Below are positions 8,774 through 62,986 of a DNA stretch of 64,000 bases, one piece after another. The position numbers were made by a program, and so were the translations under genes. Location: assembly GCA_963822405.1 (NCBI GenBank), contig CAWGHH010000002.1, positions 107,703 to 171,702 on the forward strand. The letters run 5' to 3'. The DNA comes from Candidatus Uhrbacteria bacterium (lineage in GTDB: Bacteria > Patescibacteriota > Patescibacteriia > UBA9934). Below the pieces are notes generated by a model. The model was not told the origin of the DNA. It was given only the letters and a program-made list of their open reading frames with translations, and made no database searches. The first letter of the stretch is position 1. Every line of letters begins with the position of its first letter.

Positions 8774-8774
8774 A

Positions 8775-9326: not shown

Positions 9327-9327
9327 A

Positions 9328-10209: not shown

Positions 10210-10212
10210 AGG

Positions 10213-10707: not shown

Positions 10708-10708
10708 G

Positions 10709-11791: not shown

Positions 11792-11794
11792 AAA

Positions 11795-13099: not shown

Positions 13100-13236
13100 A
13101 TATGCATTATTATAGTTGATCGACGGGCATTTTGTGATGGTGGGTGTGTATGAGGTTATGCACATTTAGTGATGGTTCGATCTCATGTTGGCAAATGTAG
13201 ATTATAATACGGTTATTCTTAACGAATGAATTTTCT

Positions 13237-13719
13237 ATGAAGAGCGCGCAAAGTGAGGCCAAAGGTTTTACACTTATCGAATTGTTGATCGTGATCGCTA
13301 TCATTGTAGTGCTCGCTGCTGCAGTTTTCGTGGCTTTGAACCCAGCTAAGCGTTTTGCTGATGCTCGTGATTCACGTCGTTCAAGCGATGTTACGAACAT
13401 TGTTGCGGCTTTGAAGACGGCGCAGGTTGATAACGGCGGAGCTTACATTGCTTCGGTGGTAGCTATGACCGCAGATACGGCCTATGTTATTGGTACTGAT
13501 GCTACCGGCTGTAATACAGGCTGCACTGCCCAGACAACTAATGCCGCGTGTGTTGATCTCACAGCTCTGCAGACGGCTGGTTACTTGGGTAGCATTCCGA
13601 TGGATCCTTCGAGCGGTGCCGCCACAAAGACAGACTACTATTTGATGAGAAACACTTCAGGCACGCTTACGGCTGGTGCTTGTGACCCAGAGAACGCACC
13701 TATCTCACTTAGCCGATAA
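13237..13719 (+). CDS. pilA: Type IV major pilin (PilA-like)
   Basis: MKSAQSEAKG-FTLIELLIVIAIIVVLAA is a textbook prepilin leader and N-methyl-Phe/Glu5 helix. Cys pairs could form a C-terminal disulfide loop. Divergent from pilB, with a strong downstream terminator. Confidence 0.8.
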   Translation: MKSAQSEAKGFTLIELLIVIAIIVVLAAAVFVALNPAKRFADARDSRRSSDVTNIVAALKTAQVDNGGAYIASVVAMTADTAYVIGTDATGCNTGCTAQTTNAACVDLTALQTAGYLGSIPMDPSSGAATKTDYYLMRNTSGTLTAGACDPENAPISLSR

Positions 13720-22576: not shown

Positions 22577-24145
22577 ATGTCCGAACGCCTGATACGGCTT
22601 GCTCAGCATCTTGTCCCCGAAAAGGCTTTTGGCTCAACTGCGAGCGACGAGTTGATTGAGGTAAGCGCGCCAGCATCTACGGCAGCTTCTATCTACGAGC
22701 GCATCAGAAATTCGCTCGAGTATCAGGAGGAACATCTTCTGCGCCGTAACGCAATTTTACGAATTTTGAAACGCTACGTGGGCACTCACGCTACTTTAGA
22801 AAGCACGGCCGGAAATTTGTTGCGCGAACTAGTCTGGGCTAAGTATTTACCAAATAAAGTAGTACCAACATCTTTTGTAAATCAGCTCGCGCCAATTCTC
22901 GCGAAGTATGAGGTTCTGTTGAAGGCCGCTGAAGAAAACAAAGAAGATTCCGACACGCTTTTCTATATCGTTTTAGATATTTTAGCGACTGAGATTGAAT
23001 ACTTACTCCAGCCACCAAACGCAGATGAGGCGCTAGCCAGCTTCATGTATGAGGAGATGAAGGTTAGGACAGAATGGGATCCGTCGCTCGCTATTTCCGC
23101 TGAAGACAAAGATTTGCGGTTCTATGTGGCTGTGCACCGATCGCTCCTGAAATCTACATCCGCCACTCTTCGTTTTAGACTATTTACACTTTACTATCCG
23201 GCTTGGCGTGAGCTAGGCGCGGATGACTCACTGGTAGCTGAAATCGCCGCTAACTTGCCGGCTGTTGTTGGGGCTATCGAGGGCCAGATTGCCCATCCAC
23301 TGACTGAGAAACTGACGCGCTTGCTTCGTCGCCGGGCCGGTATATTCCGTGTGCTCGGGGATGTACTTAAGGGCGCAAAAGCGGAAATGTATGATGATCC
23401 GCATGATCTTGACGTAGCTGTTGCCGAGGCACTGGCGGTTAGAACCTCTGATTTTAAAGTTCGCCTCAGAAGAACTACGGTTCGTACTATTATCTTTTTG
23501 CTTATCACGAAGATGTTCTTAGCGTTGCTCCTGGAAGTTCCGTATGACACGCTGTTGATTAAAGAAAAAGTGGCGCTTTATCCGCTGTTTGTAAATATTC
23601 TTTTCCATCCTCTGTTCTTGGCCATTATTTCGCTCACCATTAAGATTCCAGAAAAAGAAAACTTAGCAGACTATAAAAATGCTATTCGTGCTTTGTCAGT
23701 TGGGGCAGATCATCCGGTTCTTCATGTTCGAGTAAAACGTGAAGTGCGTGGCAAGTGGCAGATTTTCTTTGACGCCATTTACGGTGCATTATTTGTTGCA
23801 GTTTACGGAGCTATCGGTTGGTTCCTTCACACTGTTCATTTCCATATCCTCTCGATCTCGCTTTTCTTGTTTTTCTTGTCGATTGTAACGTTCTTTGGTA
23901 TTCGCATTAGAACTAGTGCGAAGGATATTATCGCGTCCGACTCTCGCAGTGGTTTCTTTGGAACCGTTTTCGATATTCTTCTTTTGCCGATCGTCCGGGC
24001 CGGCTCATGGTTGTCTGAAAAAGTTTCCAAGATCAATGTGTTTATTTACTTCTTTGACTTCATCCTTGAAGCTCCGCTTAAAGTCGCCATTCAATTTATT
24101 GAGGGCTGGCTAGCGTACATCCGTGAAAAACGCGAACAAATTTAA
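22577..24145 (+). CDS. Hypothetical integral membrane protein (soluble N-terminal domain plus 4-5 TM C-terminal domain)
   Basis: 522 aa. N-terminal ~300 aa is hydrophilic; C-terminal part has several hydrophobic helices. No motif recognised. Confidence 0.45.
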   Translation: MSERLIRLAQHLVPEKAFGSTASDELIEVSAPASTAASIYERIRNSLEYQEEHLLRRNAILRILKRYVGTHATLESTAGNLLRELVWAKYLPNKVVPTSFVNQLAPILAKYEVLLKAAEENKEDSDTLFYIVLDILATEIEYLLQPPNADEALASFMYEEMKVRTEWDPSLAISAEDKDLRFYVAVHRSLLKSTSATLRFRLFTLYYPAWRELGADDSLVAEIAANLPAVVGAIEGQIAHPLTEKLTRLLRRRAGIFRVLGDVLKGAKAEMYDDPHDLDVAVAEALAVRTSDFKVRLRRTTVRTIIFLLITKMFLALLLEVPYDTLLIKEKVALYPLFVNILFHPLFLAIISLTIKIPEKENLADYKNAIRALSVGADHPVLHVRVKREVRGKWQIFFDAIYGALFVAVYGAIGWFLHTVHFHILSISLFLFFLSIVTFFGIRIRTSAKDIIASDSRSGFFGTVFDILLLPIVRAGSWLSEKVSKINVFIYFFDFILEAPLKVAIQFIEGWLAYIREKREQI

Positions 24146-27096: not shown

Positions 27097-27189
27097 AGTC
27101 GATTTCTCGTTCAGTCATCCTGAGCTTCGCGAAGGATCTGATTGGATAACTCCCATAATCTTGATGAATATACGCTATACTATTCGCAT

Positions 27190-30100
27190 ATGCGTCTAGT
27201 ATTTTTTCGTTGGAAAAGCAAGGTCGTAGCTGTCTTGGCGCTCGTCGCCATGCTTGGCCTCATGACTTCATCTCCTCAACCAGCCTTTGCAGCTGTTATC
27301 ACCTGGGATAACGGCGGGGGAGATGGACTTTGGAGTACTTGTACAAACTGGCTAGGAGACGTTTGTCCAGGCACCGGTGATATTGCTACATTTAATCCAG
27401 CCGTATCGGATACCTCGTCAACAATTGATACACTATTCGGTGATTTCTTTTCGGCCACTGTCGGTGGTGTAAATATAATGACGGGTTTTACTGGAACTAT
27501 CACTCAGGCTCGGGCGGTCAATATTGGGACTAGCGGTTGGTCGCAGGATGGAGGGACACTTAGTGGAAGTGCTGATCCAGCTCATTATTTTGCGGTGAAT
27601 AACGGAACCTTTACACTTTCTAACGGTACATTCACTGCTCCGTCGGCTACGGCTCTTGAGCTGAATACTGCGGCTTTTGTAATCACTGGCGGTACGTTTG
27701 ATCCGAATGGTGGAACGTTGGAGGTTGTGGGTACGGCCAGTTCAGTGGATGTTCTGAACTCCTTTACCTTTTCAAACCTGACTGTACAAATGACCGGTTC
27801 GTCGAATATTTTTACGATTGCGGCTGGTGACACACTTATTGTTCCAGGGACGTTTGCTTTTATGAACGGTAAGATTAACGGCGGAACGGTTGAAACTCAG
27901 GCTGCTATGAGTACGGGCAGTCACCCTGTTTACCCTGACGGTGGTACGGGGACCATCATTATTGACGGACCAGCCGTCAGAACAATTACTTTGTCGACCA
28001 ATGCAGCTGGCGGTGTTTCATTGCCGAATGTTGTTTTGAATGCTGCGGATGTAACCATATATTCAGGAGCGAACGCGGCATTTACCAGCCTAACAATTCA
28101 GGCCGGAGCTATTCTCACGGAAGCTCGTGCCAGAAGTTTCTCGGTAGCTGGTAACTATCTGCAAAGTGGTGGCTCCGTAGACCTGAGTAATCTCCTTAAC
28201 GTTAACCTTTCCACTTTTTCAGTTACTGGTTTATTGTCAGTGACTGGGGCGACAGCTAGCCTTATTTTGGGAGAGACAACTCAAGTAGCTGGAGGTTGGA
28301 CACATACCGGAACGTCTACGATTAACGTTGGAACTGGACTTGTGACCATGCGACTGACTTCCGATATTAATCTTACCGGCGATGCTACATTTAATGACCT
28401 CATCATCAATTTTTGCTCGCCGAGCTTAGTGAATCATGCTGTTACGGTTGCTACTGGAGTCAACAATCAATTCATCGTGAATGGCAAGGCTTGGATAGAG
28501 GGTTGCGGATTCAATAACTTACTATTTTTGCAGAGCAACTCAAGCGGAGTGCAGGCAGACGTTGATTTTGCTGGTCGTACCACTATGTCTCGCGTAGTCA
28601 TGAAGGACATTAACAATTACGACGCAACTCCTGTTCAGTGTGTCAATCGATGTATGGATCGGGGAGATAACGCAGGTGTTACTTTTCTTCCCGAGAATCG
28701 GTTTATTTCCGTCGGAGCTGCTTACGCCGCGGCCGGGAACGCAACCACTGATACTTCGGAAAGTGGCGATTCAGTTCGAGTTGATGTTGTTTTGCGGTTA
28801 GCACCAACAGCCACAGTGACTATTCCAGTTGCTACTTCTGATGCAACAGAAGCTGAGTCGAACGTTAGTTCGTTAATTTTTACCACGGACAACTGGAATG
28901 TTCCGCAGACCGTTACTGTGACAGGTATAGAAGATTTGATCGACGATGATAGTATCTCCTACTCGCTAAATATCGGTTCGGCCACTTCTACCGATTTGGG
29001 ATATGACGGCCTTTCGATTAGTGTTCCTTTGAAAAATCGTGACAATGATACGACCGAGGGAAGGGTCGATTTCCAGAATGGTGAAGACTTAAATATCCTG
29101 TCTGGAGACATTCTTTCAGATGGCAGCAGTTTGAAATATAAAAATTGGAGCTCTTCGGATGTATATGATTCCAACGGCGCACTTGCCACGGTTCATGACA
29201 ATGTGATTTTCGATCCAGATGCCAATATGTTCTGGGAAGCTGATCAATCCAATAATCGGCTTCTAAAATTTGATCCGACTGGCGTGATAGATGTTACAGC
29301 TCCAATTGCCTCGCCAGCCAGTCCTTCTAAAGTTGTATATGACTCAACTCATTTAGCTATTTGGACTACATTTTCTGGTAGCTCAAACATTGTTAAGCTG
29401 GAATCTTTAAACGGAACGCCTTTTGATACCGATCTAGCTACGAGCACCTATCCAGTTGGTGGCATACCGGCATTTATAGCGTACGACGCAACTCAAGATT
29501 CAGTTTGGATTTTGACTGATGCCTCAGTACTTGTAGAGATTGATGCGGCGACTGGTGGTGTGTTGCATTCGTACGCAACATTAGTAAATGCAAGTGAACT
29601 AGTTTATGACAGCGTGAATAATAAACTTTGGACATTGACCAGGCCATTTAATTCATATTATGTTCTCGAGAAGATTGATCCTTTGACCGGGCTGACAACT
29701 AATACGTATCCGCTCCCAACGGTGACTGGAGATATTCAGGGGACAGTTCGTTTAGCTTTTGATGTAACGAATAACATAGTTTGGGTTTCAGATGCTCCGA
29801 GCAATGAGAGTGACGGTGCGGCTTGGGATAGCGTGGATTTTTTGATGGGTATTAATGGAGTTGATGGGACAGTTCGAGGAGTCTACGATTCAGACTTTTT
29901 AAGCCTAGGTTACCCAGTGGTGAATGAATATGATCAATTGGTGCATTACGGCTTACATTCATTCGCCATCACCGATGGGAGTCGACAAGGTGTGATAGGT
30001 GCTGAGATTGAAGCTGTTTCCGGTACTGGAGAAATGTGGAGTAATGGTAATTTGTACTATCACACGCTCTATTGGCCAAATGCTTATACAACAGCTACAA

Positions 30101-32733
30101 CAGAATATGGTGGTTTACTTCCTACCACTCTTTGGAGCACGTTAACGGAATATCCAAATGCAGAAATTACCAACGGTTCCTCTCTTTACACTTTTTCATT
30201 TAATAGTGGTTCAAGCTACTACATTTGGACCGGTTCAGTCTGGCGCGTGATCGCTTCTAGCTTAGCGGCTGATCATGGCAATGGAGACGGGGATTGGTAT
30301 TATAGAGATTCTGCCAACGGGTGGACATTCGACGCTACGGCAACTGCAACTAGTGCTATTCAGAACGCCATTCGTTACGCCAACGGAAGCAATGATATGA
30401 CTGGTGCAACAGCCCAGTCCTTGGCGCCCGGTACTTGGGAAAGTGCGCCCGGTTGGGTTGCATTGACTCCATTTCTTGCCTCTACCTCTTACTACACTCC
30501 AGACACGCTTATCTACACGGATACTTGGGCTAGTTTAACTGATGTTACGCTGAACGAAACTCTGGCTGGGCAAGGAGCTTATTACGCATTTTCATTTACG
30601 GACAGTGAAAAATTCTCCATTTGGACCGGTTCCGCTTGGCGAGTCATTGCCAGTTCTCGGACGGCTGATCACGGAGGAGCTGAATGGACCTGGTATTTCC
30701 GTGATGGTGCTAACGGCTGGGTAAATACTTTTGATACAAGTGGCTTTGACGACGCCATTCATTCTTTGAATTATGCAATTAGCGGTGTTGGATTCACGGG
30801 AGTAGTCCAAAATCAAATGACGGGCACTACGGTCAATGCATTGACCCAGGCTAACTTGAACGCGGCCGGTGGTTGGACTTTAGCTATGCCAATAGATGTG
30901 AGCGCCACACTTAAGACAACAAGCAGGCTCGTCACACCGTCCGTTCAGGATGCGACCTTCTCGTTTACTACTGGTTCGACTCCTGGAGTAGCAATTTCTG
31001 AGACCGCGAGTTCAACGGATGTCACAGAAGGCGGGGCGACGGACACGTATTCCGTTGTTTTAGATTCTTTGCCAACCGATAGTGTTGTAGTCACGGCCAC
31101 AGGCAACGCGGATGTTTCCGTTTCTGGACCATTGACCTTTACCGTTGGCAACTGGAACGTTCCGCAGGACATAACTGTTACCGCAGTTAATGATTCTATA
31201 GACGAGGTAAGTCTTGAGAATGCAACTATTACTCACGCTGCGGCTTCAACCGATGTTAATTATGATAGTGGTCTCTCGGTGGCTAGCGTAACGGCACACG
31301 TGACTGATAATGATGTTGCCGGTATTACGGTTGGCGCGATTTCTGGCCATACAACTGAGGCGCTCGTTACAGCAACATTTACTGTGGTTCTTGATACGCA
31401 GCCAACCGCTGATGTTTCAATCGGCGTCACGTCTGATGATACTTCTGAGGGCACGGTCTCACCGGCTTCACTCACGTTCACAAGCGGTAATTGGTCAACT
31501 CCTCAAACTGTTACCGCGAGTGGTGTAAATGATTCTCCGGTTGACGGCGATATCACATATCACATTGTTCTTGCGGCTGCTACTTCAGCCGACACGTTTT
31601 ATAGCGGAATAAACCCAGCTGACGTAACCGTGATAAATGATGATAACGACGTTCCATCGTCTGGAGGTAGTTCGTTTGTGCAGTTGCCATCGCCTACGTC
31701 TCCAGATTCTCATGCAGTTTCTGCGCCTACTTGTACGTCGGCCAGCTTGGTTAATGTGCTCATGTCGGCTCATAACGCAACTTCGTACATGCTCTCTATC
31801 GATGGGGCATTTGATACGGAATCGTGGCTCACATTCACACCCAACGTAAATGATTCAACTTGGGTAATCCCAACCATGAATCTTGGCGTGATGTTGCCGG
31901 AACCAGATGGGGAATACCTTATCTCTGTTCGGTATCGATCATCATCAGGAAACGTTTCATCGACTGTTTCAACTCAGGTACAGCGGGATATCGCTGGCGG
32001 TTGCGTGAATCCTTCCGTCATTCCTACGCCAGCAGAGCCAGCACCAACCGAAAATCAACCAACTCCAGGTGAGCCGGGTACTGGCACTACAATAATCGAA
32101 TATCAACCAGGATGTTTAAACATCAGCCGTCCAAAAGACCTAACAAGAAACATTATTGGTCGAGGTCTCTCGCCAATTACCGGCAAAGAAGAAGACATTA
32201 TTCAGCCTCTCCCGGGTGATTACATGCGCGCCCAGAATATCGACACTGTCTACTGTATTGATGCCTCGTCACGTCGACGACCATTTATTGACGAGACCAC
32301 TTATTTTACCTTCGAGCGTTCATTTGACCCGGTAGTTTTTGTGACAGACGCTACTCTCCCTACTCTGCAAATGGGTCCGCCAATGTTGCCTAAGGCCGGA
32401 GTGACATTAGTTAAATTCCGTTCCTCCCCAATTGTTTATCGAGTAATTGAAAACCCAGGAGATACAGATCATCGTGTGCTCAGGCCTCTCGCAAGTGAAG
32501 CTGTGGCCAAACTTAACTACGGCGAAAACTGGTCAGACTATATTATTGACGTAGACGAAAGTCTGAATGCCTGGTTCATTATCGGCGAGCCCATCACTGG
32601 CCTAGAACAAGAAAGCCTCAGCACCTTCCGTCCCCGAGATCTCCTCAATGAAGTCAGTAAATCAGTCGAGCAACAGCTCTCAAACTTCACTAACTTCCTC
32701 GGCGCAATTTACAATCGTATATTTGCGCACTAG
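27190..32733 (+). CDS. Very large secreted surface/adhesin-like protein (1847 aa from M17) with β-propeller-like and Ig/Calx-β-like tandem repeats and a conserved C-terminal domain
   Basis: Signal peptide MRLVFFRWKSKVVAVLALVAMLGLMTSSPQPAFA. Blade-like ~40-aa repeats around residues 680-900 (VYDS...W motifs). A duplicated ~95-aa unit (Y[TA]FSF...IWTGS[VA]WRVIASS..ADHG...W[YT][YF]RD[SG]ANGW). Three consecutive ~110-aa repeats (TVTA[TV]NDS..D) near residues 1290-1620. The C-terminal 125 aa are homologous to the 21243-21764 frame. Confidence 0.7.
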   Translation: MRLVFFRWKSKVVAVLALVAMLGLMTSSPQPAFAAVITWDNGGGDGLWSTCTNWLGDVCPGTGDIATFNPAVSDTSSTIDTLFGDFFSATVGGVNIMTGFTGTITQARAVNIGTSGWSQDGGTLSGSADPAHYFAVNNGTFTLSNGTFTAPSATALELNTAAFVITGGTFDPNGGTLEVVGTASSVDVLNSFTFSNLTVQMTGSSNIFTIAAGDTLIVPGTFAFMNGKINGGTVETQAAMSTGSHPVYPDGGTGTIIIDGPAVRTITLSTNAAGGVSLPNVVLNAADVTIYSGANAAFTSLTIQAGAILTEARARSFSVAGNYLQSGGSVDLSNLLNVNLSTFSVTGLLSVTGATASLILGETTQVAGGWTHTGTSTINVGTGLVTMRLTSDINLTGDATFNDLIINFCSPSLVNHAVTVATGVNNQFIVNGKAWIEGCGFNNLLFLQSNSSGVQADVDFAGRTTMSRVVMKDINNYDATPVQCVNRCMDRGDNAGVTFLPENRFISVGAAYAAAGNATTDTSESGDSVRVDVVLRLAPTATVTIPVATSDATEAESNVSSLIFTTDNWNVPQTVTVTGIEDLIDDDSISYSLNIGSATSTDLGYDGLSISVPLKNRDNDTTEGRVDFQNGEDLNILSGDILSDGSSLKYKNWSSSDVYDSNGALATVHDNVIFDPDANMFWEADQSNNRLLKFDPTGVIDVTAPIASPASPSKVVYDSTHLAIWTTFSGSSNIVKLESLNGTPFDTDLATSTYPVGGIPAFIAYDATQDSVWILTDASVLVEIDAATGGVLHSYATLVNASELVYDSVNNKLWTLTRPFNSYYVLEKIDPLTGLTTNTYPLPTVTGDIQGTVRLAFDVTNNIVWVSDAPSNESDGAAWDSVDFLMGINGVDGTVRGVYDSDFLSLGYPVVNEYDQLVHYGLHSFAITDGSRQGVIGAEIEAVSGTGEMWSNGNLYYHTLYWPNAYTTATTEYGGLLPTTLWSTLTEYPNAEITNGSSLYTFSFNSGSSYYIWTGSVWRVIASSLAADHGNGDGDWYYRDSANGWTFDATATATSAIQNAIRYANGSNDMTGATAQSLAPGTWESAPGWVALTPFLASTSYYTPDTLIYTDTWASLTDVTLNETLAGQGAYYAFSFTDSEKFSIWTGSAWRVIASSRTADHGGAEWTWYFRDGANGWVNTFDTSGFDDAIHSLNYAISGVGFTGVVQNQMTGTTVNALTQANLNAAGGWTLAMPIDVSATLKTTSRLVTPSVQDATFSFTTGSTPGVAISETASSTDVTEGGATDTYSVVLDSLPTDSVVVTATGNADVSVSGPLTFTVGNWNVPQDITVTAVNDSIDEVSLENATITHAAASTDVNYDSGLSVASVTAHVTDNDVAGITVGAISGHTTEALVTATFTVVLDTQPTADVSIGVTSDDTSEGTVSPASLTFTSGNWSTPQTVTASGVNDSPVDGDITYHIVLAAATSADTFYSGINPADVTVINDDNDVPSSGGSSFVQLPSPTSPDSHAVSAPTCTSASLVNVLMSAHNATSYMLSIDGAFDTESWLTFTPNVNDSTWVIPTMNLGVMLPEPDGEYLISVRYRSSSGNVSSTVSTQVQRDIAGGCVNPSVIPTPAEPAPTENQPTPGEPGTGTTIIEYQPGCLNISRPKDLTRNIIGRGLSPITGKEEDIIQPLPGDYMRAQNIDTVYCIDASSRRRPFIDETTYFTFERSFDPVVFVTDATLPTLQMGPPMLPKAGVTLVKFRSSPIVYRVIENPGDTDHRVLRPLASEAVAKLNYGENWSDYIIDVDESLNAWFIIGEPITGLEQESLSTFRPRDLLNEVSKSVEQQLSNFTNFLGAIYNRIFAH

Positions 32734-34536: not shown

Positions 34537-35299
34537 TTACATGCGCAAATTATTCGTTTTCATTCTTGCTCTCTTATTTCTGTCCGTTGTTTGTGGATCA
34601 ATTTTACTCGTGGGCGAGCAACTGCCAAGGGGTTTAACTCGACGAACACTGAATATTGACGATCGTCATATTGTGTTAGACGTCATGAATCTCACCGCGC
34701 AGAACCTGTCCATGAGCCTTCTGAACGAACCGTCAAACGCGCGGAACGTTAAAGAATGGCGAGCGTCCACGAACGCCGATCTCGTGATTAACGGCACTTA
34801 CTTTGACGAAAAGAATACGCCAACTGGTTTTTATTCTTTAAACGGTTCAGCCAGTGCCACGCCTTGGCCAAGGGCTGAGGATCAGCTGGCAACCGCTAGT
34901 TATTCTTTCTTGGTCGAGGTAGTGGACGGTAAGCTCAAGCTTTCGTACTTGCCAGACAATCCACGCACCGAACCGTCAGTGAACGGTTTTTTGTCATTTC
35001 CAACTTTAATCGCTGATGGCAAGTCGCTCGTCACCGCGGATACTGGCTTGCGTGCCCAACGCACCATGTTGGCCCAGGATGCTTCGGGTGGCGTCTACTT
35101 GATCACTATTGAAAAGGGCAGCGTATCCTTGTTTGAGGCCGCTACTTGGCTTCTCGCGCAACCCGAAGGCTTCGTCCTCGCGGGGAACCTCGATGGTGGA
35201 CCGTCGACTGGCATTTCATACACAGATGGCAAGCGAGTTTTTGACGAATTTTCGGCTCCGATTCCAAATGTTATTATAGGTCAATCGTATGGAAAATAA
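34526..35299 (+). CDS. Phosphodiester glycosidase-like (DUF2233-like) secreted/membrane-anchored protein, tentative
   Basis: N-terminal TM/signal segment. Motifs LVINGTYFDEKNTPTGFY and LAGNLDGGPSTGISY resemble the phosphodiester glycosidase family. Judged from memory of the family consensus only. Confidence 0.4.
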   Translation: MDFNYMRKLFVFILALLFLSVVCGSILLVGEQLPRGLTRRTLNIDDRHIVLDVMNLTAQNLSMSLLNEPSNARNVKEWRASTNADLVINGTYFDEKNTPTGFYSLNGSASATPWPRAEDQLATASYSFLVEVVDGKLKLSYLPDNPRTEPSVNGFLSFPTLIADGKSLVTADTGLRAQRTMLAQDASGGVYLITIEKGSVSLFEAATWLLAQPEGFVLAGNLDGGPSTGISYTDGKRVFDEFSAPIPNVIIGQSYGK

Positions 35300-37376
35300 T
35301 GGTTATAGAGAGCTTAAGATGAATCCCGAGGCTAAAGATTTTAGAAAGTCATTAGCCGATTCTTTGATTAGGGCTAGGAACTATGATGGGTCGGAGGCTT
35401 CTTACGAAAGCCTGATGTCGTCTCTGGAGGTTTTAGAGGAAACAATTGAAACATCCCCATCTGTTGCTGGTCATACGGTTCGGGAGAAGGAGATTGACGC
35501 AGCGTTTAGATTTGCTCCCATTAGACCAAAAGAAATTAATGATGTTTTAGAAATAGCTGAGCAAGCGGGTCGACGCCGACTCCATAAAAGCTTGCAAGCG
35601 TCTCTTGAAGATGGCTCTGATATACCAAATGGAGCTTTTGTTATTCACAGACTAGATGGGGTTATTCTCCCGCCCGGTAATATTCCTGGGCCGATAGCCA
35701 CGAATGAGTCGGGTCATGGGTTTGACGCTGTTTCCTTTGAACCTAGGCTAGAAGAAATAATAAGATTATTGACTCAAATTCAGATATTTTCTGACGATGT
35801 TTTGATCAGCATCGGGGAAGTATCGAAAGATGTAGTACGTAGCAAGAGTTATGCAGTGATAGAAATTCCTAGGCTTAATAAAACAATCCTAGTTTGTGAT
35901 GAAGTTGGCGAGGCGACCTTTATAGTTAAATCTTTGGCGTCAGCGGCAAACTTCTTGTCCACTAGAAAGCAAGACCTAACCGAACATTTTGGCGAAGACA
36001 AGGTTGTTAGAATAATTAGAAATCAAGCCTGGGAGAAAAATATTTTAGCAGTTTTGAATGATGAAGAACTGAGATCCGGCAAGCCTCTCAATAAAGTTGA
36101 TGTTAAAGAATACGAGCTTGATCAAGTGCGAGCGGCGGTAATTAAGCAGTGTCCGCTTGATGAATGGTTGCACATGAACCAGACCGAGCGTGAGCAGAAG
36201 AGAATTGACGGCCTTAGCTTACGTATCATTGCAACTATTTTTAATGTTCCGAAGCCCAAAAATGAGTATTTAAAAATAACTCATTTCAATTTAGGAAAAG
36301 AAATATTCGGTCCAGATCAAAAACTAATTAAGGAAATTGACCTGTTAACTAGAAGTGCAGAAGATTGGAAAGCTAGCGTAAAGAAAAAACTACCAACCGC
36401 TGAGGAGTGGTTGCGCATCAGTGGTCCTAAAAGGCGAGAACTCGATTTCGATGGAAAGAAGATGTCTGCTCTTCAGGGGGCATTTGGAATTCAAAATAGC
36501 GTACTATCGAGCACAAAGGCCTTTGTTCAATTGGGAGCCGAGATTTATGGCCAGGATGATCCGGCTATTAAATCTGCTTACACCGCGGCCATCTTGAAGG
36601 AGTCGGCTCTAGAACGAACTCCGGAAGAATGGCGACAGGTTATCAGGGGCAGGATGGATGCCGGTGTGTGGCTTCAAAAAATGAGTGAGTCCGGTTTAGA
36701 GCTCAATATCGACGGCATCGGGATGCGAAAATTGGCAAAAAAATTTAGTGTTCAAATCGGTTCGCCTAAGGTCACTATGTTTAAATTAGGTTTCAATATA
36801 TACGGACTAGATAATGAGCAACTATCTACGGCGTATGAATTGTTCAATAAAGAGCAAGAGAGAATTACGTGGTCAAAGGAGCAGTGGAGGGAGCATTTAT
36901 TGATTAAGTGTCCTGATTTTGCGACTTGGATTGAAGATGGAAAAAATCTAAAAGTATTTAATAGCAAAGTTGGATATTTGCCGTGGATAGCTAAAAGTTT
37001 TGGTTTTCCGTGTGACGGAATTCATGATCGAAACACTTTTTCCTTGTTATCAAAAGAGCTCTACGGAGTAGATCCTAGGAATACGGAATCAGCCGTGGTT
37101 TGGCGAAAGAAGGCCGATGCGGAGACCTTGAATCGAACAACAGATGATTGGCGAGCCCGAATTAAGCAGGAATTTCCTACGGCGCAAGACTGGTTGGGTA
37201 TGACAAAAGAGCAGAAACGTCATTTTTATGTCGATAAACTGAGCATGCGAAGATTATGGAGAGCATTCGGCCTTAAAGATATTCCTTCGGACAGTAACAT
37301 CCATACGAACGCTAATTTTTTGGTTCTCGGTGAACAGATTTACGGAGTTGATGATCCAACCATTGTCAGCCGCTAA
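35289..37376 (+). CDS. Hypothetical 695-aa protein with five ~90-aa tandem repeats
   Basis: From ~residue 270 there are five repeats. Each begins with a Trp-containing basic segment (VRAAVIKQCPLDEWL / DWKASVKKKLPTAEEWL / EWRQVIRGRMDAGVWL / EQWREHLLIKCPDFATWI / DWRARIKQEFPTAQDWL). Each ends with a [FL]xLGxEIYGxD[DP] motif (FNLGKEIFGPDQ, FVQLGAEIYGQDDP, FKLGFNIYGLDNE, LLSKELYGVDPR, LVLGEQIYGVDDP). Confidence 0.55.
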   Translation: MENNGYRELKMNPEAKDFRKSLADSLIRARNYDGSEASYESLMSSLEVLEETIETSPSVAGHTVREKEIDAAFRFAPIRPKEINDVLEIAEQAGRRRLHKSLQASLEDGSDIPNGAFVIHRLDGVILPPGNIPGPIATNESGHGFDAVSFEPRLEEIIRLLTQIQIFSDDVLISIGEVSKDVVRSKSYAVIEIPRLNKTILVCDEVGEATFIVKSLASAANFLSTRKQDLTEHFGEDKVVRIIRNQAWEKNILAVLNDEELRSGKPLNKVDVKEYELDQVRAAVIKQCPLDEWLHMNQTEREQKRIDGLSLRIIATIFNVPKPKNEYLKITHFNLGKEIFGPDQKLIKEIDLLTRSAEDWKASVKKKLPTAEEWLRISGPKRRELDFDGKKMSALQGAFGIQNSVLSSTKAFVQLGAEIYGQDDPAIKSAYTAAILKESALERTPEEWRQVIRGRMDAGVWLQKMSESGLELNIDGIGMRKLAKKFSVQIGSPKVTMFKLGFNIYGLDNEQLSTAYELFNKEQERITWSKEQWREHLLIKCPDFATWIEDGKNLKVFNSKVGYLPWIAKSFGFPCDGIHDRNTFSLLSKELYGVDPRNTESAVVWRKKADAETLNRTTDDWRARIKQEFPTAQDWLGMTKEQKRHFYVDKLSMRRLWRAFGLKDIPSDSNIHTNANFLVLGEQIYGVDDPTIVSR

Positions 37377-47378: not shown

Positions 47379-48314
47379 CTAATGACTAAGGTTGGACACG
47401 TCTCCCGTTAGGTTGTTGATGTCGCCTTCAAGGTGGCTGACGTCGCCCTTAATGTTCGTGACGTCGCCATTGATGTAGGTGACCGTACCCCTGATGTTCG
47501 TTGTATCTCCGTAGAGGTACATCACGTAACCAGAGATGTTCGTCACGTTGCCACGCAGGTTTCCAATGCTACCGCCGAGGTCGCCCACGTCGCCAGAGAT
47601 GTTCGTGACTTTTCCCTTGATGTTCGTGACGTCGCCAGAGATGTTTGTTGCGTCACCGTGAATGTTCGTCGCATCGCCAGAGATGTTCGTCACGTTGCCA
47701 CGCAGGTATTCAACGTTACCTTTGAGATCGCTGACGTTGCCCCTGATGTTCGTCACGTTGCCGTTGATGTTGCTGACGTCACCAGAGACCTGTGTCACGT
47801 GTCCGAAGATAACGCCTGCAAAGCCCGAGATGTTGGTTACGTTGCCTCCCAGGTTCCCAACGTCGCCACTGAGGCCGCTGACGTTGCCCCTGATATTCGT
47901 CGTGTCGCCGGTGATGTTGGTGACGTCGCCGGTGATTTTCGTCGCATCACCGTAGATGTTCGTCGTATCGCCGGTGATATTCGTCACGTTGCCCCGCAGG
48001 TGTTCAACGTTGCCTTTGAGACCGCTTACGTCGCCCGTGATGTTCTTGACGGTGCCGTAGATGTTAGTGACGTCACCCGAGAGTTGTGACACATCTCCGT
48101 AAATACTGCCTGCGTTTCCGCAGACATGGGACATGTCACCGCGGATGTTGGGTGTGACCCCGCGGAGGGTACACGCCTTAGTGGACGTAGCCGGCGCGGA
48201 CGGGGCGGCAACCGTGGCCTCGGGCATGTTGCTCGTGGGCGCAGAGGTCGCCTTAGGCGTCTCGCCCCCACAGGCAACAAGCGAAAGGAGAAACAGCAAG
48301 CTGAAGGAACGCAT
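47379..48314 (-). CDS. Lipoprotein built from 37 uninterrupted heptapeptide repeats ([DN]-V-[ST]-N-[IL]-x-G)
   Basis: Start placed at MRSFSLLFLLSLVACGG (ATG at 48314; strong SD ggggagg 7 nt upstream; lipobox LVAC). A Pro/Ala/Thr linker follows. From ~residue 52 to the C-terminus every 7th residue is Gly (TPNIRG DMSHVCG ... DVTNITG DTTNIYG DATKITG ... DVSNLSH). The repeats are also visible at DNA level. Confidence 0.65.
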   Translation of the reverse strand: MRSFSLLFLLSLVACGGETPKATSAPTSNMPEATVAAPSAPATSTKACTLRGVTPNIRGDMSHVCGNAGSIYGDVSQLSGDVTNIYGTVKNITGDVSGLKGNVEHLRGNVTNITGDTTNIYGDATKITGDVTNITGDTTNIRGNVSGLSGDVGNLGGNVTNISGFAGVIFGHVTQVSGDVSNINGNVTNIRGNVSDLKGNVEYLRGNVTNISGDATNIHGDATNISGDVTNIKGKVTNISGDVGDLGGSIGNLRGNVTNISGYVMYLYGDTTNIRGTVTYINGDVTNIKGDVSHLEGDINNLTGDVSNLSH

Positions 48315-48455
48315 GAAACCTCCCCAATAGGGTGAACGAATGGCACCAAAAGTGGCGCCGTTCGACCAACTAAAATAACAGAAAATTAGCACTCCGTCAA
48401 CGTAAGACGCCTGCGGTGTATTATAGATATGGATATTTTGTTAAATCATTAATAC

Positions 48456-48487
48456 AAAAAGCCACTTCATGGCTGAAGTGGCTTTTT
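48456..48487. terminator. Bidirectional rho-independent terminator hairpin
   Basis: aaaaa-gccacttca-tggc-tgaagtggc-ttttt. Perfect 9-bp stem with symmetric A/T flanks, directly abutting the 3' end of the minus-strand tRNA. Confidence 0.55.
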
Positions 48488-48561
48488 GGTGATCTCACCG
48501 GGAATCGAACCCGGATCTGCACCGTGAGAGGGTGCCGTCCTAACCGTTAGACGATGAGACC
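48487..48561 (-). tRNA. tRNA-Glu (anticodon CUC), CCA encoded
   Basis: Reverse complement is GGTCTCA TC GTCTAACGGTTAGGAC G GCACC CTCTCAC GGTGC AGAT CCGGG TTCGATT CCCGG TGAGATC A CCA. 7-bp acceptor stem (one G-U), D arm, anticodon loop cuCUCac with U33/A37, T-arm GGTTCGATTCC. Confidence 0.8.
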
Positions 48562-56818: not shown

Positions 56819-57655
56819 ATGTCTGACGATCAAAACAAGTATATTGCGATCTTCAAGAGCAAGGAAATTCGGAGGATCATTCATAAAAATGAATGGTGGT
56901 TTTCGGTTATCGACATCATCGAAGCCTTAACTGGCACTGACAGAGGTAGGAAATATTGGAGCGATTTAAAGAAAATGCTCATCGATGAAGGATTTATTGA
57001 ACTGTCCGAAAAAATCGGACAGTTGAAAATGATGGCATTGGACGGCAAGATGCGAGATACCGATTGTGCCGATACGGAAACAATGTTTCGCATTATTCAA
57101 TCCGTCCCATCACCGAAAGCCGAACCTTTCAAGCGTTGGTTAGCGAAGGTCGGCTATGAACGTATTCAAGAGATTGAAAATCCCGAGCTAGCGTCAAAAC
57201 GCGCTAAGCTACTATACAAGCTCAAGGGCTATCCCGAGCAGTGGATCGAAAAACGAATGCGTGGTATTGCGGTTCGAAATGAACTGACCGATGAATGGGA
57301 TAAGCGCGGCGCGAAAAAACAAAAAGAGTACGAGATACTCACTGCTGAAATTTCGAAGGCATCATTTGGCGTAACGCCCGCGGAGTATAAGAAATTGAAG
57401 GGACTCAAGCGGGAGAATCTACGTGATCACATGGATGACCTCGAACTGATCTTGACCATGCTCGGCGAACAGACGACAACGGAAATTCACCGCAAGAATG
57501 ATTCTCAAGGATTGCCAAAGTTGAAGGGCGACGCAAAGGCGGGAGGAGCTATCGCTGGCTCTGCTAGAAAGCAAATCGAGAAGAAACTCGGCAGACCAAT
57601 TGTTTCAAAAGATAACTTTCTGGCAAACGACAAGAAGAAAAAGATAGGGAAGTAA
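56819..57655 (+). CDS. Bro-N domain protein (phage anti-repressor-like DNA-binding protein)
   Basis: IAIFKSKEIRRIIHKNEWWFSVIDIIEALTG... DGKMRDTDCADTETMFRIIQSVPSPKAEPFKRWLAKV fits the Bro-N consensus (F.F....IR......wFva.DvaeaLg ... dg.....r...fi.e.glY.li..S..P.A..FkrWv). C-terminal half is Lys-rich. Confidence 0.55.
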   Translation: MSDDQNKYIAIFKSKEIRRIIHKNEWWFSVIDIIEALTGTDRGRKYWSDLKKMLIDEGFIELSEKIGQLKMMALDGKMRDTDCADTETMFRIIQSVPSPKAEPFKRWLAKVGYERIQEIENPELASKRAKLLYKLKGYPEQWIEKRMRGIAVRNELTDEWDKRGAKKQKEYEILTAEISKASFGVTPAEYKKLKGLKRENLRDHMDDLELILTMLGEQTTTEIHRKNDSQGLPKLKGDAKAGGAIAGSARKQIEKKLGRPIVSKDNFLANDKKKKIGK

Positions 57656-59504: not shown

Positions 59505-59705
59505 AAGTGGGCGGAAGTATATAGGAAGGATTGAAATTAGTCAAAGTTTTTGGCACCCTTTTTGACAAACCCTAGCGTTTTTTGTAAGGTCACCCGTTCC
59601 TTGAATGTTTATCGAACACATTCCGGGTCCAAGTTAGCGGGGAGAAAGTTCGAGACAGTGAAAGTGACTAACATCTATTGGCGAATTCTCGCCAAGGAGG
59701 ACGTG

Positions 59706-61691
59706 ATGAAGGTTCAATTGTTTGCACTCATGGGCCTGATGCTCATGGGATCGTGTGGCCCTGCCGGCGTGAGCCTGCAGGAAGACTCCGGCGACAGCGC
59801 CGTGTCGAGCGGCTTCTACGCGCTCGACGGGACCGAAGAAGCTCGCTTGAGCTGTAACGGTACGATCGAGGTCCACAACTTCGACCAGGACTCGTTCGGT
59901 CGGGAATACTGCGTGGCGCTCGGTACCTCGAGCCTCCCGTTCTTCGCGACCACCGTCGGCGACTGCAACGACGGCGACCCGCTCATCTACCCCGGCGCCC
60001 CAGACCCTACGGTCGATGGCGTCGATCAGAACTGCGACGACGTCGACGGCCCTTTGCAGAACGGAACCTTCTACAGGGACCTCGATGGCGACGGGTACGG
60101 CAAAGCGTCGAGCGGCACGAGCACGGTTCAGGGTACCGGCTTCGTGACGAGCAACACGGACTGCGATGACACGAGCAACCTCGATCACCCGAACGCGGCC
60201 GAGGCCTGCGACGGCATCGACAACGACTGCGACCACCTCGTGGACAACGGTGCGCCGGGGAGCGCGACGTGGTACGGGGACGCCGACAAGGACAACTACG
60301 GGATCTCCACGCAGACCGTGGTGGCGTGCATGAAGCCGGCGAACTACGCGGTTCAGGCCGGTGATTGCAAGGACGACGACATCACGATCCACCCCGGCGC
60401 GGCGGAAACCTGCGACGGCAAGGACAACAACTGCGACAACCTGGTGGACAACGGCGCAACGGGCGCCAGCACCTGGTACGCGGATGTGGACGGTGACACG
60501 GCCGGCAGTAGCGTGCACGGTACCGTCACGGCGTGCGCCCAGCCCCAGGGGTTCGCCGCGAGCAACAACGACTGCGACGACAACAACTTCGCGCGGACGC
60601 CCGGCAAGACCGAGGTCTGCGACGCCATCGACAACGACTGCGACAACGTCGTGGACGAGGGCGCGGGCAGCGTGTACTTCGCGGACAAGGACGGCGATAC
60701 GATCGGCAGTTCGGTGTACGGCACCACCACGGCGTGCGCCCAGCCCACGGGGTACGTCACGACGAGCACCGATTGCGACGACAACAACTTCGCGCGGACG
60801 CCCGGCAAGGCCGAGATCTGCGACGGCGTCGACAACAACTGCAACGGTGTCGTGGATGATGGTGCGACTGGCATCATCATCTGGTACCTGGACGTGGACG
60901 GCGACAGCTACGGCGTGAACGGGCTCATCTCGAACGCCTGTGCCAAGCCGAGCAACTACGCCATCCAGGGCGGTGACTGCAACGACGCGAACGGAGCGAT
61001 CAAGCCCGGCGCGTCCGAGTCCTGCAACGGCGTGGACGACAACTGCAACGGGCAGGTCGACGAAACGTGCAACTCCGTCACCTACTACAAGGACAACGAC
61101 AACGACGGTCACGGGAGAGCGAGTAGCGGAACGAGCACCTCTTCGGGCAACGGGTTCGTCACGAGCAGTGATGACTGCAACGACGGCGACGCCCAGACCT
61201 ACCCCGGCGCGCCTGAGACCCGGGTCAACGTCGACAGCAACTGCGACGGCACGGCTTACACCGGCTCGAACAGCGGTTCGTGTCCGACCGGCCAGAGCAA
61301 GTTTGCGGGTTCGTTCGTCGGCTCGGGCACGGGAAACATCATCCTGTCCGATTCGTACTTCGACATCCGGGACACCGTGAACGGCGTCAACTACCTGCCT
61401 TGGGCTCACGTCAGCACCGGTACGCCTTCGGGCATGACGGTGTCGACGAGCGGCAACAAGGTGACGTTCGCGTATGACGTGTGTCTGCCGGACACCGTGA
61501 TCAAGACGGTGTCGTTTACCTACTACTACTCGAACGACTCCCAGGTTCGCTACAGCTGTGAAGGCGGCGCGAACAACACGCCGACGAACTTCACTGGCGT
61601 GTGGACCATGACGAGCGACGGCTTCTCGACCCCCGTGTCGAAGGCGCTCAGCGGAAACCCCGTGACGGGCTGCGTCGGCACCTACTACTAG
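59706..61691 (+). CDS. Secreted Cys-rich repeat protein with seven 'putative metal-binding' (Myxococcus MopE-type) motifs; compositionally foreign (~65% GC)
   Basis: Start MKVQLFALMGLMLMGSCGP with SD aaggagga. Seven repeats of DC[DNK]D....[YH]PGA.E.CDG.DN[DN]C[DN]..VD[DE]G. These alternate with WY.D.DGD.[YI]G loops (WYGDADKDNYG, WYADVDGDTAG, YFADKDGDTIG, WYLDVDGDSYG, YYKDNDNDGHG). GC content is visibly far above the flanks. A 714-aa antisense ORF (59634-61778) is a high-GC shadow. Confidence 0.7.
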   Translation: MKVQLFALMGLMLMGSCGPAGVSLQEDSGDSAVSSGFYALDGTEEARLSCNGTIEVHNFDQDSFGREYCVALGTSSLPFFATTVGDCNDGDPLIYPGAPDPTVDGVDQNCDDVDGPLQNGTFYRDLDGDGYGKASSGTSTVQGTGFVTSNTDCDDTSNLDHPNAAEACDGIDNDCDHLVDNGAPGSATWYGDADKDNYGISTQTVVACMKPANYAVQAGDCKDDDITIHPGAAETCDGKDNNCDNLVDNGATGASTWYADVDGDTAGSSVHGTVTACAQPQGFAASNNDCDDNNFARTPGKTEVCDAIDNDCDNVVDEGAGSVYFADKDGDTIGSSVYGTTTACAQPTGYVTTSTDCDDNNFARTPGKAEICDGVDNNCNGVVDDGATGIIIWYLDVDGDSYGVNGLISNACAKPSNYAIQGGDCNDANGAIKPGASESCNGVDDNCNGQVDETCNSVTYYKDNDNDGHGRASSGTSTSSGNGFVTSSDDCNDGDAQTYPGAPETRVNVDSNCDGTAYTGSNSGSCPTGQSKFAGSFVGSGTGNIILSDSYFDIRDTVNGVNYLPWAHVSTGTPSGMTVSTSGNKVTFAYDVCLPDTVIKTVSFTYYYSNDSQVRYSCEGGANNTPTNFTGVWTMTSDGFSTPVSKALSGNPVTGCVGTYY

Positions 61692-61780
61692 GTGAATGGG
61701 TGAGTCGGTGACTCTTGGGCGCCTTTGGACTTCGGTCCAGGGGCGCCTTTTACTATGTTGTGATAATCTGTTCGGCATCT

Positions 61781-62986
61781 ATGCGACATAAACACGTTCT
61801 TCCTTCTTTTGCAGACTTATCACAAGACATTGCTGGCGAGATTCCGGTAGGGATTATTGAGGACTGGATTCAGAGCGACGGTAGTGAAGAATCGCACGCC
61901 AAAATTTTGAAACCCTTCGAACGCCAAGGGACTTTTGTTTCTTCGGACTCTGCGGGACTGTCTAAACTATCACTCGGCAAGTCATTGATCGAGGTCATGA
62001 AGCTAGTCAGCCAACCAAAAGAAATTATTCACGCTTTTGGCAAAGCTATTGGCGGGCAGGCGATTGGTGTTTGGATTGCGGACAATACGCAGATGTTCTA
62101 TCCGTCGAGTGTTCCAGTCGAAGATGTAGTCGGTCAGATGCTCGCTGTGCAAGCTGAGGCGTCGAGGTGCCTCGTTAAAGTTGGACTCGGCATACATACT
62201 GGTGTGGCATATGAAATCGGCGGAGGATTATATGGGGCAGATGCTGATAGCGTCGAGCATGTGACCGAAGAGGATTCTAAGGCGGGGGAGGTTATGGTTT
62301 CGGCGGAAGTGAAGAAGGTTATAGGTGATAAGTGGAAGGTTAGGACAGAGCGTGAAGGCTATTTTGTGCTCGAACAACCAACGGAAGCGTTGCCGGTGAA
62401 GGCTGGCAATGATATTCGTTATCCGGCGCCTTTTGACGGTAAGTTTTTCGACGAACTTCAAGCTCTTGACCTAAATAACAAGCAAATGGTAGAGGCGCTC
62501 GAACAGGCTCGTCTACAAGCTAGAACGGTAGTTCTCATTCGAGTTTTTCATACTCACGAGGAATTGCTTTTGAATACACTCGTTAAAGGAGTCGCGACAA
62601 ACTCGCTCATGAATAATGTGTTGAAACGATACGACTGCAATCTCATTAACATGAATGGCAGCATCATGATTGTAACGCTTGAGCAATCTGCTGAAGCTGT
62701 AGATTTAGCGCTCGCTCTGCATGAAGCGACTCGAAAAAATGAATTGACTGCTAACGTTTCAGTAGTAGCTGGCGAGGTATTAATCTTCGATCTTGGCCAA
62801 GGCAAAGAGCAAATTGCTGGTTCACCGGTGAATGTTGCATCAAAGCTCGCGGAAGATACTGATGAACGTAACGCCTTATTCCTTGAGTCGTCAGTGATCG
62901 AGCACGCGCCTCAACACGGATTGCAAATGCCATTTACTGTGGTGAAGTCGGGAGTTACATTATCTGGAATTCGGGTAACTTTTTAG
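61781..62986 (+). CDS. Hypothetical protein
   Basis: ~400 aa from MRHKHV. GC content returns to the window norm. No motif recognised. Confidence 0.4.
   Translation: MRHKHVLPSFADLSQDIAGEIPVGIIEDWIQSDGSEESHAKILKPFERQGTFVSSDSAGLSKLSLGKSLIEVMKLVSQPKEIIHAFGKAIGGQAIGVWIADNTQMFYPSSVPVEDVVGQMLAVQAEASRCLVKVGLGIHTGVAYEIGGGLYGADADSVEHVTEEDSKAGEVMVSAEVKKVIGDKWKVRTEREGYFVLEQPTEALPVKAGNDIRYPAPFDGKFFDELQALDLNNKQMVEALEQARLQARTVVLIRVFHTHEELLLNTLVKGVATNSLMNNVLKRYDCNLINMNGSIMIVTLEQSAEAVDLALALHEATRKNELTANVSVVAGEVLIFDLGQGKEQIAGSPVNVASKLAEDTDERNALFLESSVIEHAPQHGLQMPFTVVKSGVTLSGIRVTF

Follow-up and report, generated by a model that had tools for sequence, protein, structure and literature searches.

A GC-rich gene for a putative lipoprotein in Patescibacteria: foreign DNA or maintained codon usage?

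Introduction

Why should a single gene of a bacterial chromosome have a base composition quite unlike that of the DNA on either side of it? The gene considered here codes for a Cys-rich repeat protein with a predicted lipobox. It lies on the plus strand at positions 59706-61691 of a stretch of 64,000 nucleotides from Candidatus Uhrbacteria bacterium (contig CAWGHH010000002.1, positions 107,703 to 171,702 of the forward strand), and this whole stretch is called the window below. An earlier reading of the letters without database searches (the sequence-only reading) had proposed horizontal acquisition or a chimeric assembly. Genes of outlying composition are routinely put down to recent transfer or mis-assembly, and they are often dropped from metagenome-assembled genomes (MAGs). 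The present gene appears to be neither. We consider it moderately probable that it codes for a vertically inherited, fast-evolving surface lipoprotein of Patescibacteria and is one of a class of genes in which an active force preserves G/C-ending codons. Composition filters would then remove genuine surface-protein genes from genomes of the Candidate Phyla Radiation (CPR).

Composition of the gene

The coding sequence (CDS) 59706-61691 (+) has a GC content of 63.9% as against 47.6% for the remaining 62 kb of the window. Compared with all non-overlapping 1986-nt windows, the highest of which reaches 54.3%, it is an outlier at z = 6.8, and the GC island of one gene seen by eye is confirmed by this windowed calculation. 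GC at the three codon positions (GC1/GC2/GC3) is 0.54/0.50/0.88 (GC3 0.884); GC1 is host-like and the shift is restricted to GC3. With GC3 at 0.475 +/- 0.049 (range 0.39-0.59) in 48 other open reading frames (ORFs) of the window, the gene stands at z = 8.4, so that the proposed saturation of third positions also holds. At the third position C makes up 0.59, G 0.29, T 0.09 and A 0.03. The codon table is like that of a high-GC genome: AAC, ATC and CAC are used at 100% (52 of 52 Asn codons are AAC), AAG and CAG at 94%, and GCG, ACG and GTG are preferred. Oligonucleotide usage is atypical as well, with a dinucleotide delta* of 197 (62 +/- 21 in other 2-kb windows) and a tetranucleotide correlation with the remaining window of 0.07 (mean elsewhere 0.70).

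The protein itself does not follow this shift. Its amino-acid composition (residues FYMINK 0.215, GARP 0.259) is like that of homologues from low-GC hosts and unlike that of Myxococcus homologues (FYMINK 0.14-0.15, GARP 0.32-0.34). Only the silent positions of the gene look high-GC.

The shift had been described as running from the start codon to the stop. Its boundaries are indeed sharp, but there is no abrupt onset at the ATG, as GC3 ramps up across the signal peptide from 0.50 in codons 2-9 over 0.73 in codons 10-20 to 0.95 in codons 21-40. It then stays at 0.85-1.0 until the stop (0.97 in the last 30 codons). The upstream spacer (59505-59705) has 44% GC, the putative 5′ untranslated region (5′UTR) 48%, and the downstream spacer, which is largely terminator hairpin, 53.5%.

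The locus in related lineages

The gene lies between typA and a gene on the same strand (61778-62986, +) for a protein of 402 residues with no Pfam domain, which is syntenic in three lineages and is called the neighbour gene below. When reference genomes were scanned with this neighbour gene, the sole relative was a 265-kb contig of an NCBI MAG labelled Patescibacteria group bacterium (L001). In this contig the gene between typA and the neighbour gene has 60-67% GC and codes for a lipobox protein with ten PF11617 motifs. Over 21 kb a 242-kb JGI metagenome contig (L006) matches L001 at 100% identity. The neighbour gene of a third lineage (L005) is 84% identical at the nucleotide level to that of L001, and directly upstream of it lies the 3′ end of the GC-rich gene (67% GC). 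The comparison thus comprises three lineages from four assemblies, with two complete orthologues (window and L001) and the L005 fragment. Both junctions align between lineages: upstream a block TTTTTGACAAACCyTAGCG...GTArGrTC and the ribosome-binding site (RBS), downstream the stop codon, the terminator hairpin and a TTTGTGATAA block. Judged by the shared locus, the aligned junctions and a rare, specifically shared C-terminal domain, the genes are orthologues in a conserved frame.

The relatives are not close. Between the window and L001 amino-acid identity is 91% for rpoD, 94% for typA and 80% for the neighbour protein, and 39% for the GC-rich gene. At the four-fold degenerate sites of rpoD, typA and the neighbour gene 59-64% of the positions differ. 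Over 595 pooled four-fold sites of the flanks the mismatch between the strong (G or C, S) and weak (A or T, W) state is 0.466, where 0.5 would be random. Under a two-state model about 26% of a starting GC deviation is retained per lineage. A gene imported before the split at GC3 0.90-1.0 is then predicted to stand now at 0.60-0.62 (about 0.61), while the orthologues are observed at 0.884 (window), 0.864 (L001) and 0.88 (L005 fragment).

An independent test is offered by short members of the same protein family (P0123, P0130), which were retrieved with a profile of the C-terminal domain and whose contigs are the loci L008-L012. Ordinary genes of these loci have about 48-50% GC and GC3 0.39-0.56. 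Within them lie runs of three to four consecutive signal-peptide/lipobox genes with 60-69% GC and GC3 0.72-0.92; these runs of small secreted and lipoprotein genes span 1051-3399 in L008 and 3336-6813 in L011. Their members are a lipoprotein gene (lipoA), a gene for the C-terminal domain only, a small MopE gene and a gene for a signal-peptide protein ending in ...FRLGLG. The runs of L008 and L011 adjoin Wzy/GT4 glycosyltransferase genes (GC3 ~0.5), and each run gene has a promoter-like element and a terminator of its own.

Between L008 and L011 the flanking genes (Wzy, GT4 and a helix-turn-helix gene) differ at 52-77% of four-fold sites, mainly by S<->W changes, whereas the GC-rich genes differ at 37-50%, mainly by G<->C changes. 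The clearest case is lipoA, which is free of repeats and well aligned. Its products share 71% amino-acid identity, its GC3 is 0.92 and 0.91 in the two loci, and its S/W mismatch is 0.137 versus 0.156 expected at equilibrium (GC3 0.915). The G<->C exchange in lipoA amounts to 28% (23-45% in the flanks). Third positions thus turn over at a normal pace yet stay G or C. The GC3 composition is stationary and not decaying, and hence maintained. A leader of about 100 nt upstream of lipoA (GTCATCGCCGGATCAGAGCCACCGGTGTATTCGTCCCG...) is also conserved (L008 ~930-1050, L011 ~4330-4440); it may act as a cis-regulatory RNA. The long leaders, that of lipoA included, match no Rfam family.

Layout of the locus

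The features of the locus in the window are as follows.

59559-59594 (+), promoter-like block TTGACA-N17-TAAGGT inside TTTTTGACAAACCCTAGCGTTTTTTGTAAGGTCACC, conserved between lineages and lying in DNA of normal GC
59694-59700 (+), Shine-Dalgarno sequence AAGGAGG, 5 nt 5′ of the ATG, as read from the sequence
59706-61691 (+), CDS (ORF) of the GC3-rich putative lipoprotein, 661 residues, stop codon TAG, PF11617 in 7 stretches
59706-59756 (+), predicted signal peptide MKVQLFALMGLMLMGSC with lipobox LMGS|C (Cys17), GC3 only 0.50-0.73
59961-61247 (+), repeat stalk with a period of ~204 nt, as located by its motifs
59961-60038, 60159-60233, 60363-60437 and 60570-60644 (+), first four of seven MopE-type Cys motifs
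60771-60845, 60975-61049 and 61173-61247 (+), last three of the Cys motifs
60069-60101, 60270-60302 and 60474-60506 (+), first three of six DxDxDG-type loops
60675-60707, 60882-60914 and 61083-61115 (+), last three of the loops
61260-61688 (+), C-terminal non-repeat domain, residues 519-661, predicted all-beta, with conserved Cys
61717-61758 (+), putative intrinsic terminator hairpin with a 14 bp stem (9 G-C pairs) plus T-tract
59634-61778 (-), antisense shadow ORF of 714 codons, GC1 0.86

The block inside TTTTTGACAAACCCTAGCGTTTTTTGTAAGGTCACC aligns with TTTTTGACAAACCTTAGCGATTTAAGTAGGATCC of L001. Its -10 hexamer is weak (3/6 matches) and falls below a consensus scan, so that a promoter role of 59559-59594 is only putative. 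The RBS block CGCCAmGGAGG is kept in L001, and the hairpin with the TTTGTGATAA block 3′ of it (61758-61766) is found in L001 and L005 too. A good sigma-70-like promoter, TTGACT-17-TATACT at 59516-59544 (-), faces typA and is divergent from the block of the GC-rich gene. For the neighbour gene the ATG at 61778 fits the orthologues; the listed TTG at 61715 overlaps the terminator. The neighbour protein has a homologue (47% identical) in an unrelated organism of 62-67% GC, where no MopE gene adjoins it (L007); not being syntenic, this locus was uninformative.

The antisense ORF of 714 codons was rejected as a real, overlapping gene, as the antisense frame stayed open in 2000 out of 2000 synonymous shuffles and is thus a by-product of codon usage. 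The frame is open because the sense gene is free of TTA, CTA and TCA codons. A second such shadow ORF, of 908 codons, is found at L001 7078-9804 (-). Gene callers that favour the longest ORF would choose the wrong strand over these GC-rich genes.

Confinement to coding sequence and to a gene class

At the loci of the short family members the spacers between adjacent GC-rich genes have 45-57% GC and carry a terminator hairpin, a TTGACT...TATAnT element and GGAGG. In a genuine 71% GC genome, which hosts the best database match (L014), the spacers have 69-84% GC. When eleven GC-rich genes are taken together, codons 2-20 have a GC3 of 0.69-0.73 and the later codons one of 0.82-0.84. Such a relaxation at the 5′ end is expected of genes adapted to initiation in their present hosts.

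The only two credible lipobox genes of the window are at the same time its two GC3 outliers (0.88 and 0.74). The second one and the gene next to it are located as follows.

47379-48392 (-), second putative lipoprotein gene, likely start 48314, lipobox LLSLVA|C, GC3 0.71-0.74, z = 5.4
48487-48561 (-), tRNA-Glu(CUC), immediately upstream of the second lipoprotein gene

The second protein (47379-48314) consists of tandem GDVTNIxG / GNVTNIxG heptad-like repeats and gives weak coiled-coil/LPP-like matches in Pfam, with no stretch individually significant. A further MopE lipoprotein gene (L013) has GC3 0.91 between spacers of 43-53% GC, and one on a Patescibacteria-labelled contig (L002) has GC3 0.72 versus ~0.57 in its neighbours. 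The MopE genes of Bacteroidota are at host composition, with 44.5% GC in L003 and GC3 0.20-0.30 in L004; for L003 a GC3 of 0.37 holds for one MopE gene, the value for the other being unreliable as the fetched frame differs from the query translation. Given that these homologues match their hosts, we reject the idea that the amino-acid make-up of the repeat family forces a high GC content.

The protein and its family

The protein matches Pfam PF11617 with 215.2 bits (cut-off 27, E = 7.7e-65) in 7 stretches. In this respect the sequence-only reading was right: the seven DCxD...PGAxExCDGxDNDC motifs can be located, and so can six [WYF][YF]xDxDxDxxG loops, which it had called Ca-loop-like linkers. 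The Cys and Asp columns of the motif are invariant over 41 aligned homologues, and there are 31 Cys residues in all. From the N-terminus the order is signal peptide, a spacer of ~65 residues, seven modules of ~68 residues and a C-terminal domain of 143 residues. The lipobox MKVQLFALMGLMLMGS|C with Cys17 satisfies [LVI][ASTVI][GAS]C and is also present in the orthologue and in all family members with the C-terminal domain; Lgt and LspA are not among the annotated ORFs of the window, which is only part of the genome. The Asp-rich DxDxDG-type loops are by their sequence probably Ca2+-binding.

Within the gene direct-repeat families are spaced by 198-207 nt at 60-81% nucleotide identity. The stalk modules share at most 55% amino-acid identity, the position of the last module is conserved and there are lineage-specific sub-expansions; by this divergence the modules look old. 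AlphaFold2 (41 homologues) gives a pLDDT of 85-94 over residues ~120-510, with small hairpins and loop-rich knots. The overall pTM score is low (0.36), which fits the expectation for an extended rod. A Foldseek search of the full-length model against the PDB returned no significant match.

Typical Myxococcota or Actinobacteria architecture, as had been supposed, is not what we find, since strong homologues also occur in Flavobacteriales/Bacteroidota, Pseudomonadota and Patescibacteria. The full-length homologues share the repeats only (34-50% identity over 52-80% of the query). About half of the best 120 start with a lipobox, and the C-terminal domain is in none of these 120. The full-length search gave repeat-driven matches only and no orthologue; exact-sequence look-ups of the protein and of typA gave no match, nor did the NCBIfam models match the protein.

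The C-terminal domain is specifically shared with the L001 orthologue (E = 2e-10). In an exhaustive phmmer search over 1.84 billion representative proteins it had four hits only. Each of these is a lipobox protein that ends in the domain and has 0, 2, 3 or 8 MopE motifs N-terminal of it. A word-indexed search with a two-sequence profile of the domain gave no match. Members whose DNA can be retrieved sit in genomes of ~48% GC, and a high-GC donor with this domain was not found among the representative proteins searched. The motif number ranges from 0 to 10 across family members (the L001 orthologue has 10 PF11617 stretches). By these searches the domain of ~140 residues defines a small, previously undescribed family.

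Taken together, the product would be a surface-anchored stalk of variable length which presents a binding head. An exposed binding or adhesion role seems most likely, and such an interaction role fits because the protein evolves fast (39% identity versus 80-94% for its neighbours). Cys-rich surface lipoproteins of variable length are candidates for host attachment in CPR bacteria, which are thought to live as episymbionts. A literature search on the function of PF11617 returned nothing relevant.

As in other PF11617/MopE-related repeat proteins, DCxD...PGAxExCDGxDNDCDG motifs alternate with WYxDxDGDGYG loops, and lipoprotein forms of these proteins are also found in Myxococcota, Bacteroidota and others. 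Unlike them, the present protein has its own C-terminal domain and a GC3 ~40 points above its host. The only PDB sequence match is to MopE* of Methylococcus capsulatus (PDB 2VOV, 2VOW, 2VOX), a surface-associated, copper-binding protein: residues 82-115, one motif of 34 residues, match 2VOV residues 13-46 with E = 6.5e-5. The remainder of the 336-residue MopE* chain is not aligned. Because only this one motif matches, a copper function cannot be transferred, whatever the Pfam name of PF11617 (Cu-binding_MopE) suggests; the copper site of MopE* presumably lies outside the matched motif. The Ig-like beta-sandwich modules with which Gram-positive adhesins and pilins bind (ACE/Cna, Sdr, Clf, RrgB) and cohesins have no sequence relationship to the protein and gave no Pfam hit.

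What maintains the composition

We suggest the following course of events. The gene would have been at this chromosomal locus since at least the common ancestor of the three sampled lineages and have passed on by vertical descent. Its product would be anchored to the membrane by the lipidated Cys17 and form a rod-like stalk of seven ~68-residue modules, each with an Asp-rich DxDxDG-type loop and a disulfide-knotted MopE-type motif, followed by the all-beta domain of ~140 residues. A fixation bias toward G/C-ending codons, which acts within the coding sequence only, would keep the gene in its stationary state, and the same bias would be common to other secreted and lipoprotein genes of the clade. 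The most likely cause of this bias, as we infer, is selection on mRNA or translation for the gene class, for instance for message stability or expression level. It takes first place since the enrichment respects CDS boundaries and shows a 5′ ramp, since the genes have strong promoter-like elements of their own and since protein families unrelated to each other are concerned.

Several points weigh against this proposal. It invokes a fixation bias without naming its agent. G- and C-ending codons are both used and are exchanged for each other, which is like a generic GC pressure and unlike tRNA-matched selection. The window and the related loci hold no ribosomal or translation-factor genes, hence no reference for preferred codons, and the pilin gene, of a kind often highly expressed, has a GC3 of only 0.45. 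In RNA folding a 300-nt segment was no more stable than its shuffles (z = -0.03), and selection for a specific RNA structure was rejected on this result. The claim for a gene class is based on six short loci and not on whole genomes. The di- and tetranucleotide signatures are strongly atypical, as those of foreign DNA would also be. Finally, within the gene there are 33 G<->C versus 18 S<->W differences between the window and L001, but the repeat part of this alignment may pair non-orthologous modules. The strongest evidence for stationarity is therefore that of the flanks and of the non-repeat genes of L008 and L011.

The ~40-point GC3 excess, being stationary and confined to the CDS, represents an unusual kind of codon-usage heterogeneity within one genome. 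One may go further and ask whether the clade holds its secreted and lipoprotein genes at GC3 ~0.85-0.92 in genomes of ~48% GC as a second codon dialect, an idea which we put forward tentatively and regard as rather doubtful at present. If true, it would mean synonymous selection of unusual strength that is specific to a gene class, for example mRNA-stability or translational control of the surface proteome, or alternatively a targeted mutational or repair process of a new kind. A literature search on GC-rich gene classes in Patescibacteria returned nothing relevant. In any case, a stationary ~40-point GC3 gap confined to reading frames is a natural case in which to separate selection, GC-biased gene conversion and mutation bias.

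GC-biased gene conversion (gBGC) is the alternative that fares best, although we think it unlikely. A fast-evolving surface gene would often recombine, either with other strains or among its own repeats, and a bias in mismatch repair would push its third positions toward G/C. Recombining bacterial genes are enriched in G/C-ending codons regardless of optimality, most strongly at third positions (Lassalle et al. 2015, PMC4450053), and the enrichment seen here is likewise generic, as both G- and C-ending codons take part, non-optimal ones included. The fast divergence (39% identity as against 80-94% in the flanks) also speaks for recombination. So does the patchy, mosaic distribution of single-nucleotide polymorphisms (SNPs) between L008 and L009, two strains that are 99.66% identical. 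A 72-nt piece of the small MopE gene (L008 3295-3366) contains eleven differences, mostly non-synonymous, the others cluster in a 1.5-kb Wzy/GT4a stretch, and one only lies in the remaining ~7 kb; this pattern suggests recombination patches. Polarising these SNPs is underpowered, as the 11 in GC-rich genes are all in the one 72-nt patch. Conversion tracts, however, would not be expected to follow reading frames, and the enrichment ends at the CDS borders, with the 5′UTRs of ~100 nt and the spacers unenriched. The modules are old (at most 55% amino-acid and 60-81% nucleotide identity), with no ongoing homogenisation inside the gene, and homogenisation of the repeats was rejected on the same grounds. 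Moreover, the GC3 difference (about +40 points), which ends with the CDS and goes with a gene class, looks large for the mechanism; this is our own judgement and not drawn from the effect sizes of PMC4450053.

Horizontally acquired genes undergo amelioration, as set out in the Lawrence-Ochman model. Like ameliorating imports, the gene departs from its host in GC content, codon usage and oligonucleotide signature. Under this explanation it came recently, or on a single occasion, from a high-GC donor such as a member of the Myxococcota, and its GC content is the un-ameliorated signature of that donor. Its GC3 of 0.88 and its codon table are indeed as in high-GC genomes, Myxococcota are rich in PF11617 repeats, and the match with the highest score comes from a 71% GC genome. 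We nevertheless regard such an import as quite improbable. A recent acquisition is contradicted by a gene at the same locus in three lineages with synonymously saturated flanks, which stands at GC3 0.86-0.88 where ~0.61 is predicted. It is implausible that three recent imports independently took the very same place between promoter and terminator. Donor-like flanks and mobility scars are lacking: the spacers and the 5′UTR (44-53% GC) do not have donor composition, the junctions are homologous native DNA, and there are no direct or inverted repeats, tRNA or integrase at the borders, all direct repeats being internal to the gene and the sole tRNA lying 11 kb away. The C-terminal domain was found in similar lipoproteins only, in hosts of ~48% GC where DNA was retrieved and in no high-GC host, and the amino acids of the product do not follow the Myxococcus pattern. 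The repeat module may have come by horizontal transfer long ago, but this would not account for the composition seen today.

A composition that serves diversification has a precedent in the vls locus of Borrelia. Here G+C is 49.1% as against ~28.6% in the genome, a difference that is found across species and that the authors consider to be kept by selection; the locus shows a strong GC skew (0.52) and G-runs, and an array of silent cassettes lies next to it (PMC11499132). Both loci concern surface lipoproteins with a G+C content far above the genome, the present gene evolves fast, and all 52 of its Asn codons are AAC. Programmed variation, either by vls-like segmental conversion from silent cassettes or as the target of a diversity-generating retroelement, is nonetheless very improbable. 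The GC skew over the gene is ~0 (-0.04 to +0.04) with no one-strand G-runs. There are no cassettes, as neither the 64-kb window nor L001 has a second copy of the gene or of any segment of it, and there is no pair of template and variable repeats. Among the 39 ORFs of the window scanned with Pfam, which leaves some ORFs unscanned, no reverse transcriptase was found. In addition, third positions are enriched across several unrelated secreted-protein genes, among them non-repeat, non-variable ones such as lipoA (71% identical).

Least probable of all is a chimeric contig, in which the assembly would have placed DNA of a high-GC organism in a low-GC contig, for nothing but the abrupt change of composition speaks for it, while the order of typA, GC-rich gene and neighbour gene recurs with homologous junctions in independent NCBI, JGI, ENA and Logan assemblies, the boundaries are the start and stop of an intact ORF with its own RBS and terminator, and GC3 alone is shifted with GC1 host-like.

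Other genes of the window

The window contains mraZ/rsmH, a type IV pilus set, genes for ribonucleotide reductase and a penicillin-binding protein, glmS and dnaG-rpoD, a content that fits a CPR-type host. The type IV pilus-like cluster (8390-13719) has a T2SSE ATPase (11795-13165, -), a T2SSF platform protein (10709-11791, -), four small ORFs with no Pfam match and the above-mentioned pilin, which carries an N-methylation motif (13237-13719, +). The ORF of 1863 residues at 27142-32733 (+) has no Pfam match and an ordinary composition (GC3 0.405); further large ORFs with no Pfam match are located at 35289-37376 and 22577-24145. Between rpoD and typA the window has a gene with a BRO-N domain (56819-57655, +). 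This slot varies, as L001 has ORFs of 191, 161 and 221 residues in place of the BRO-N gene.

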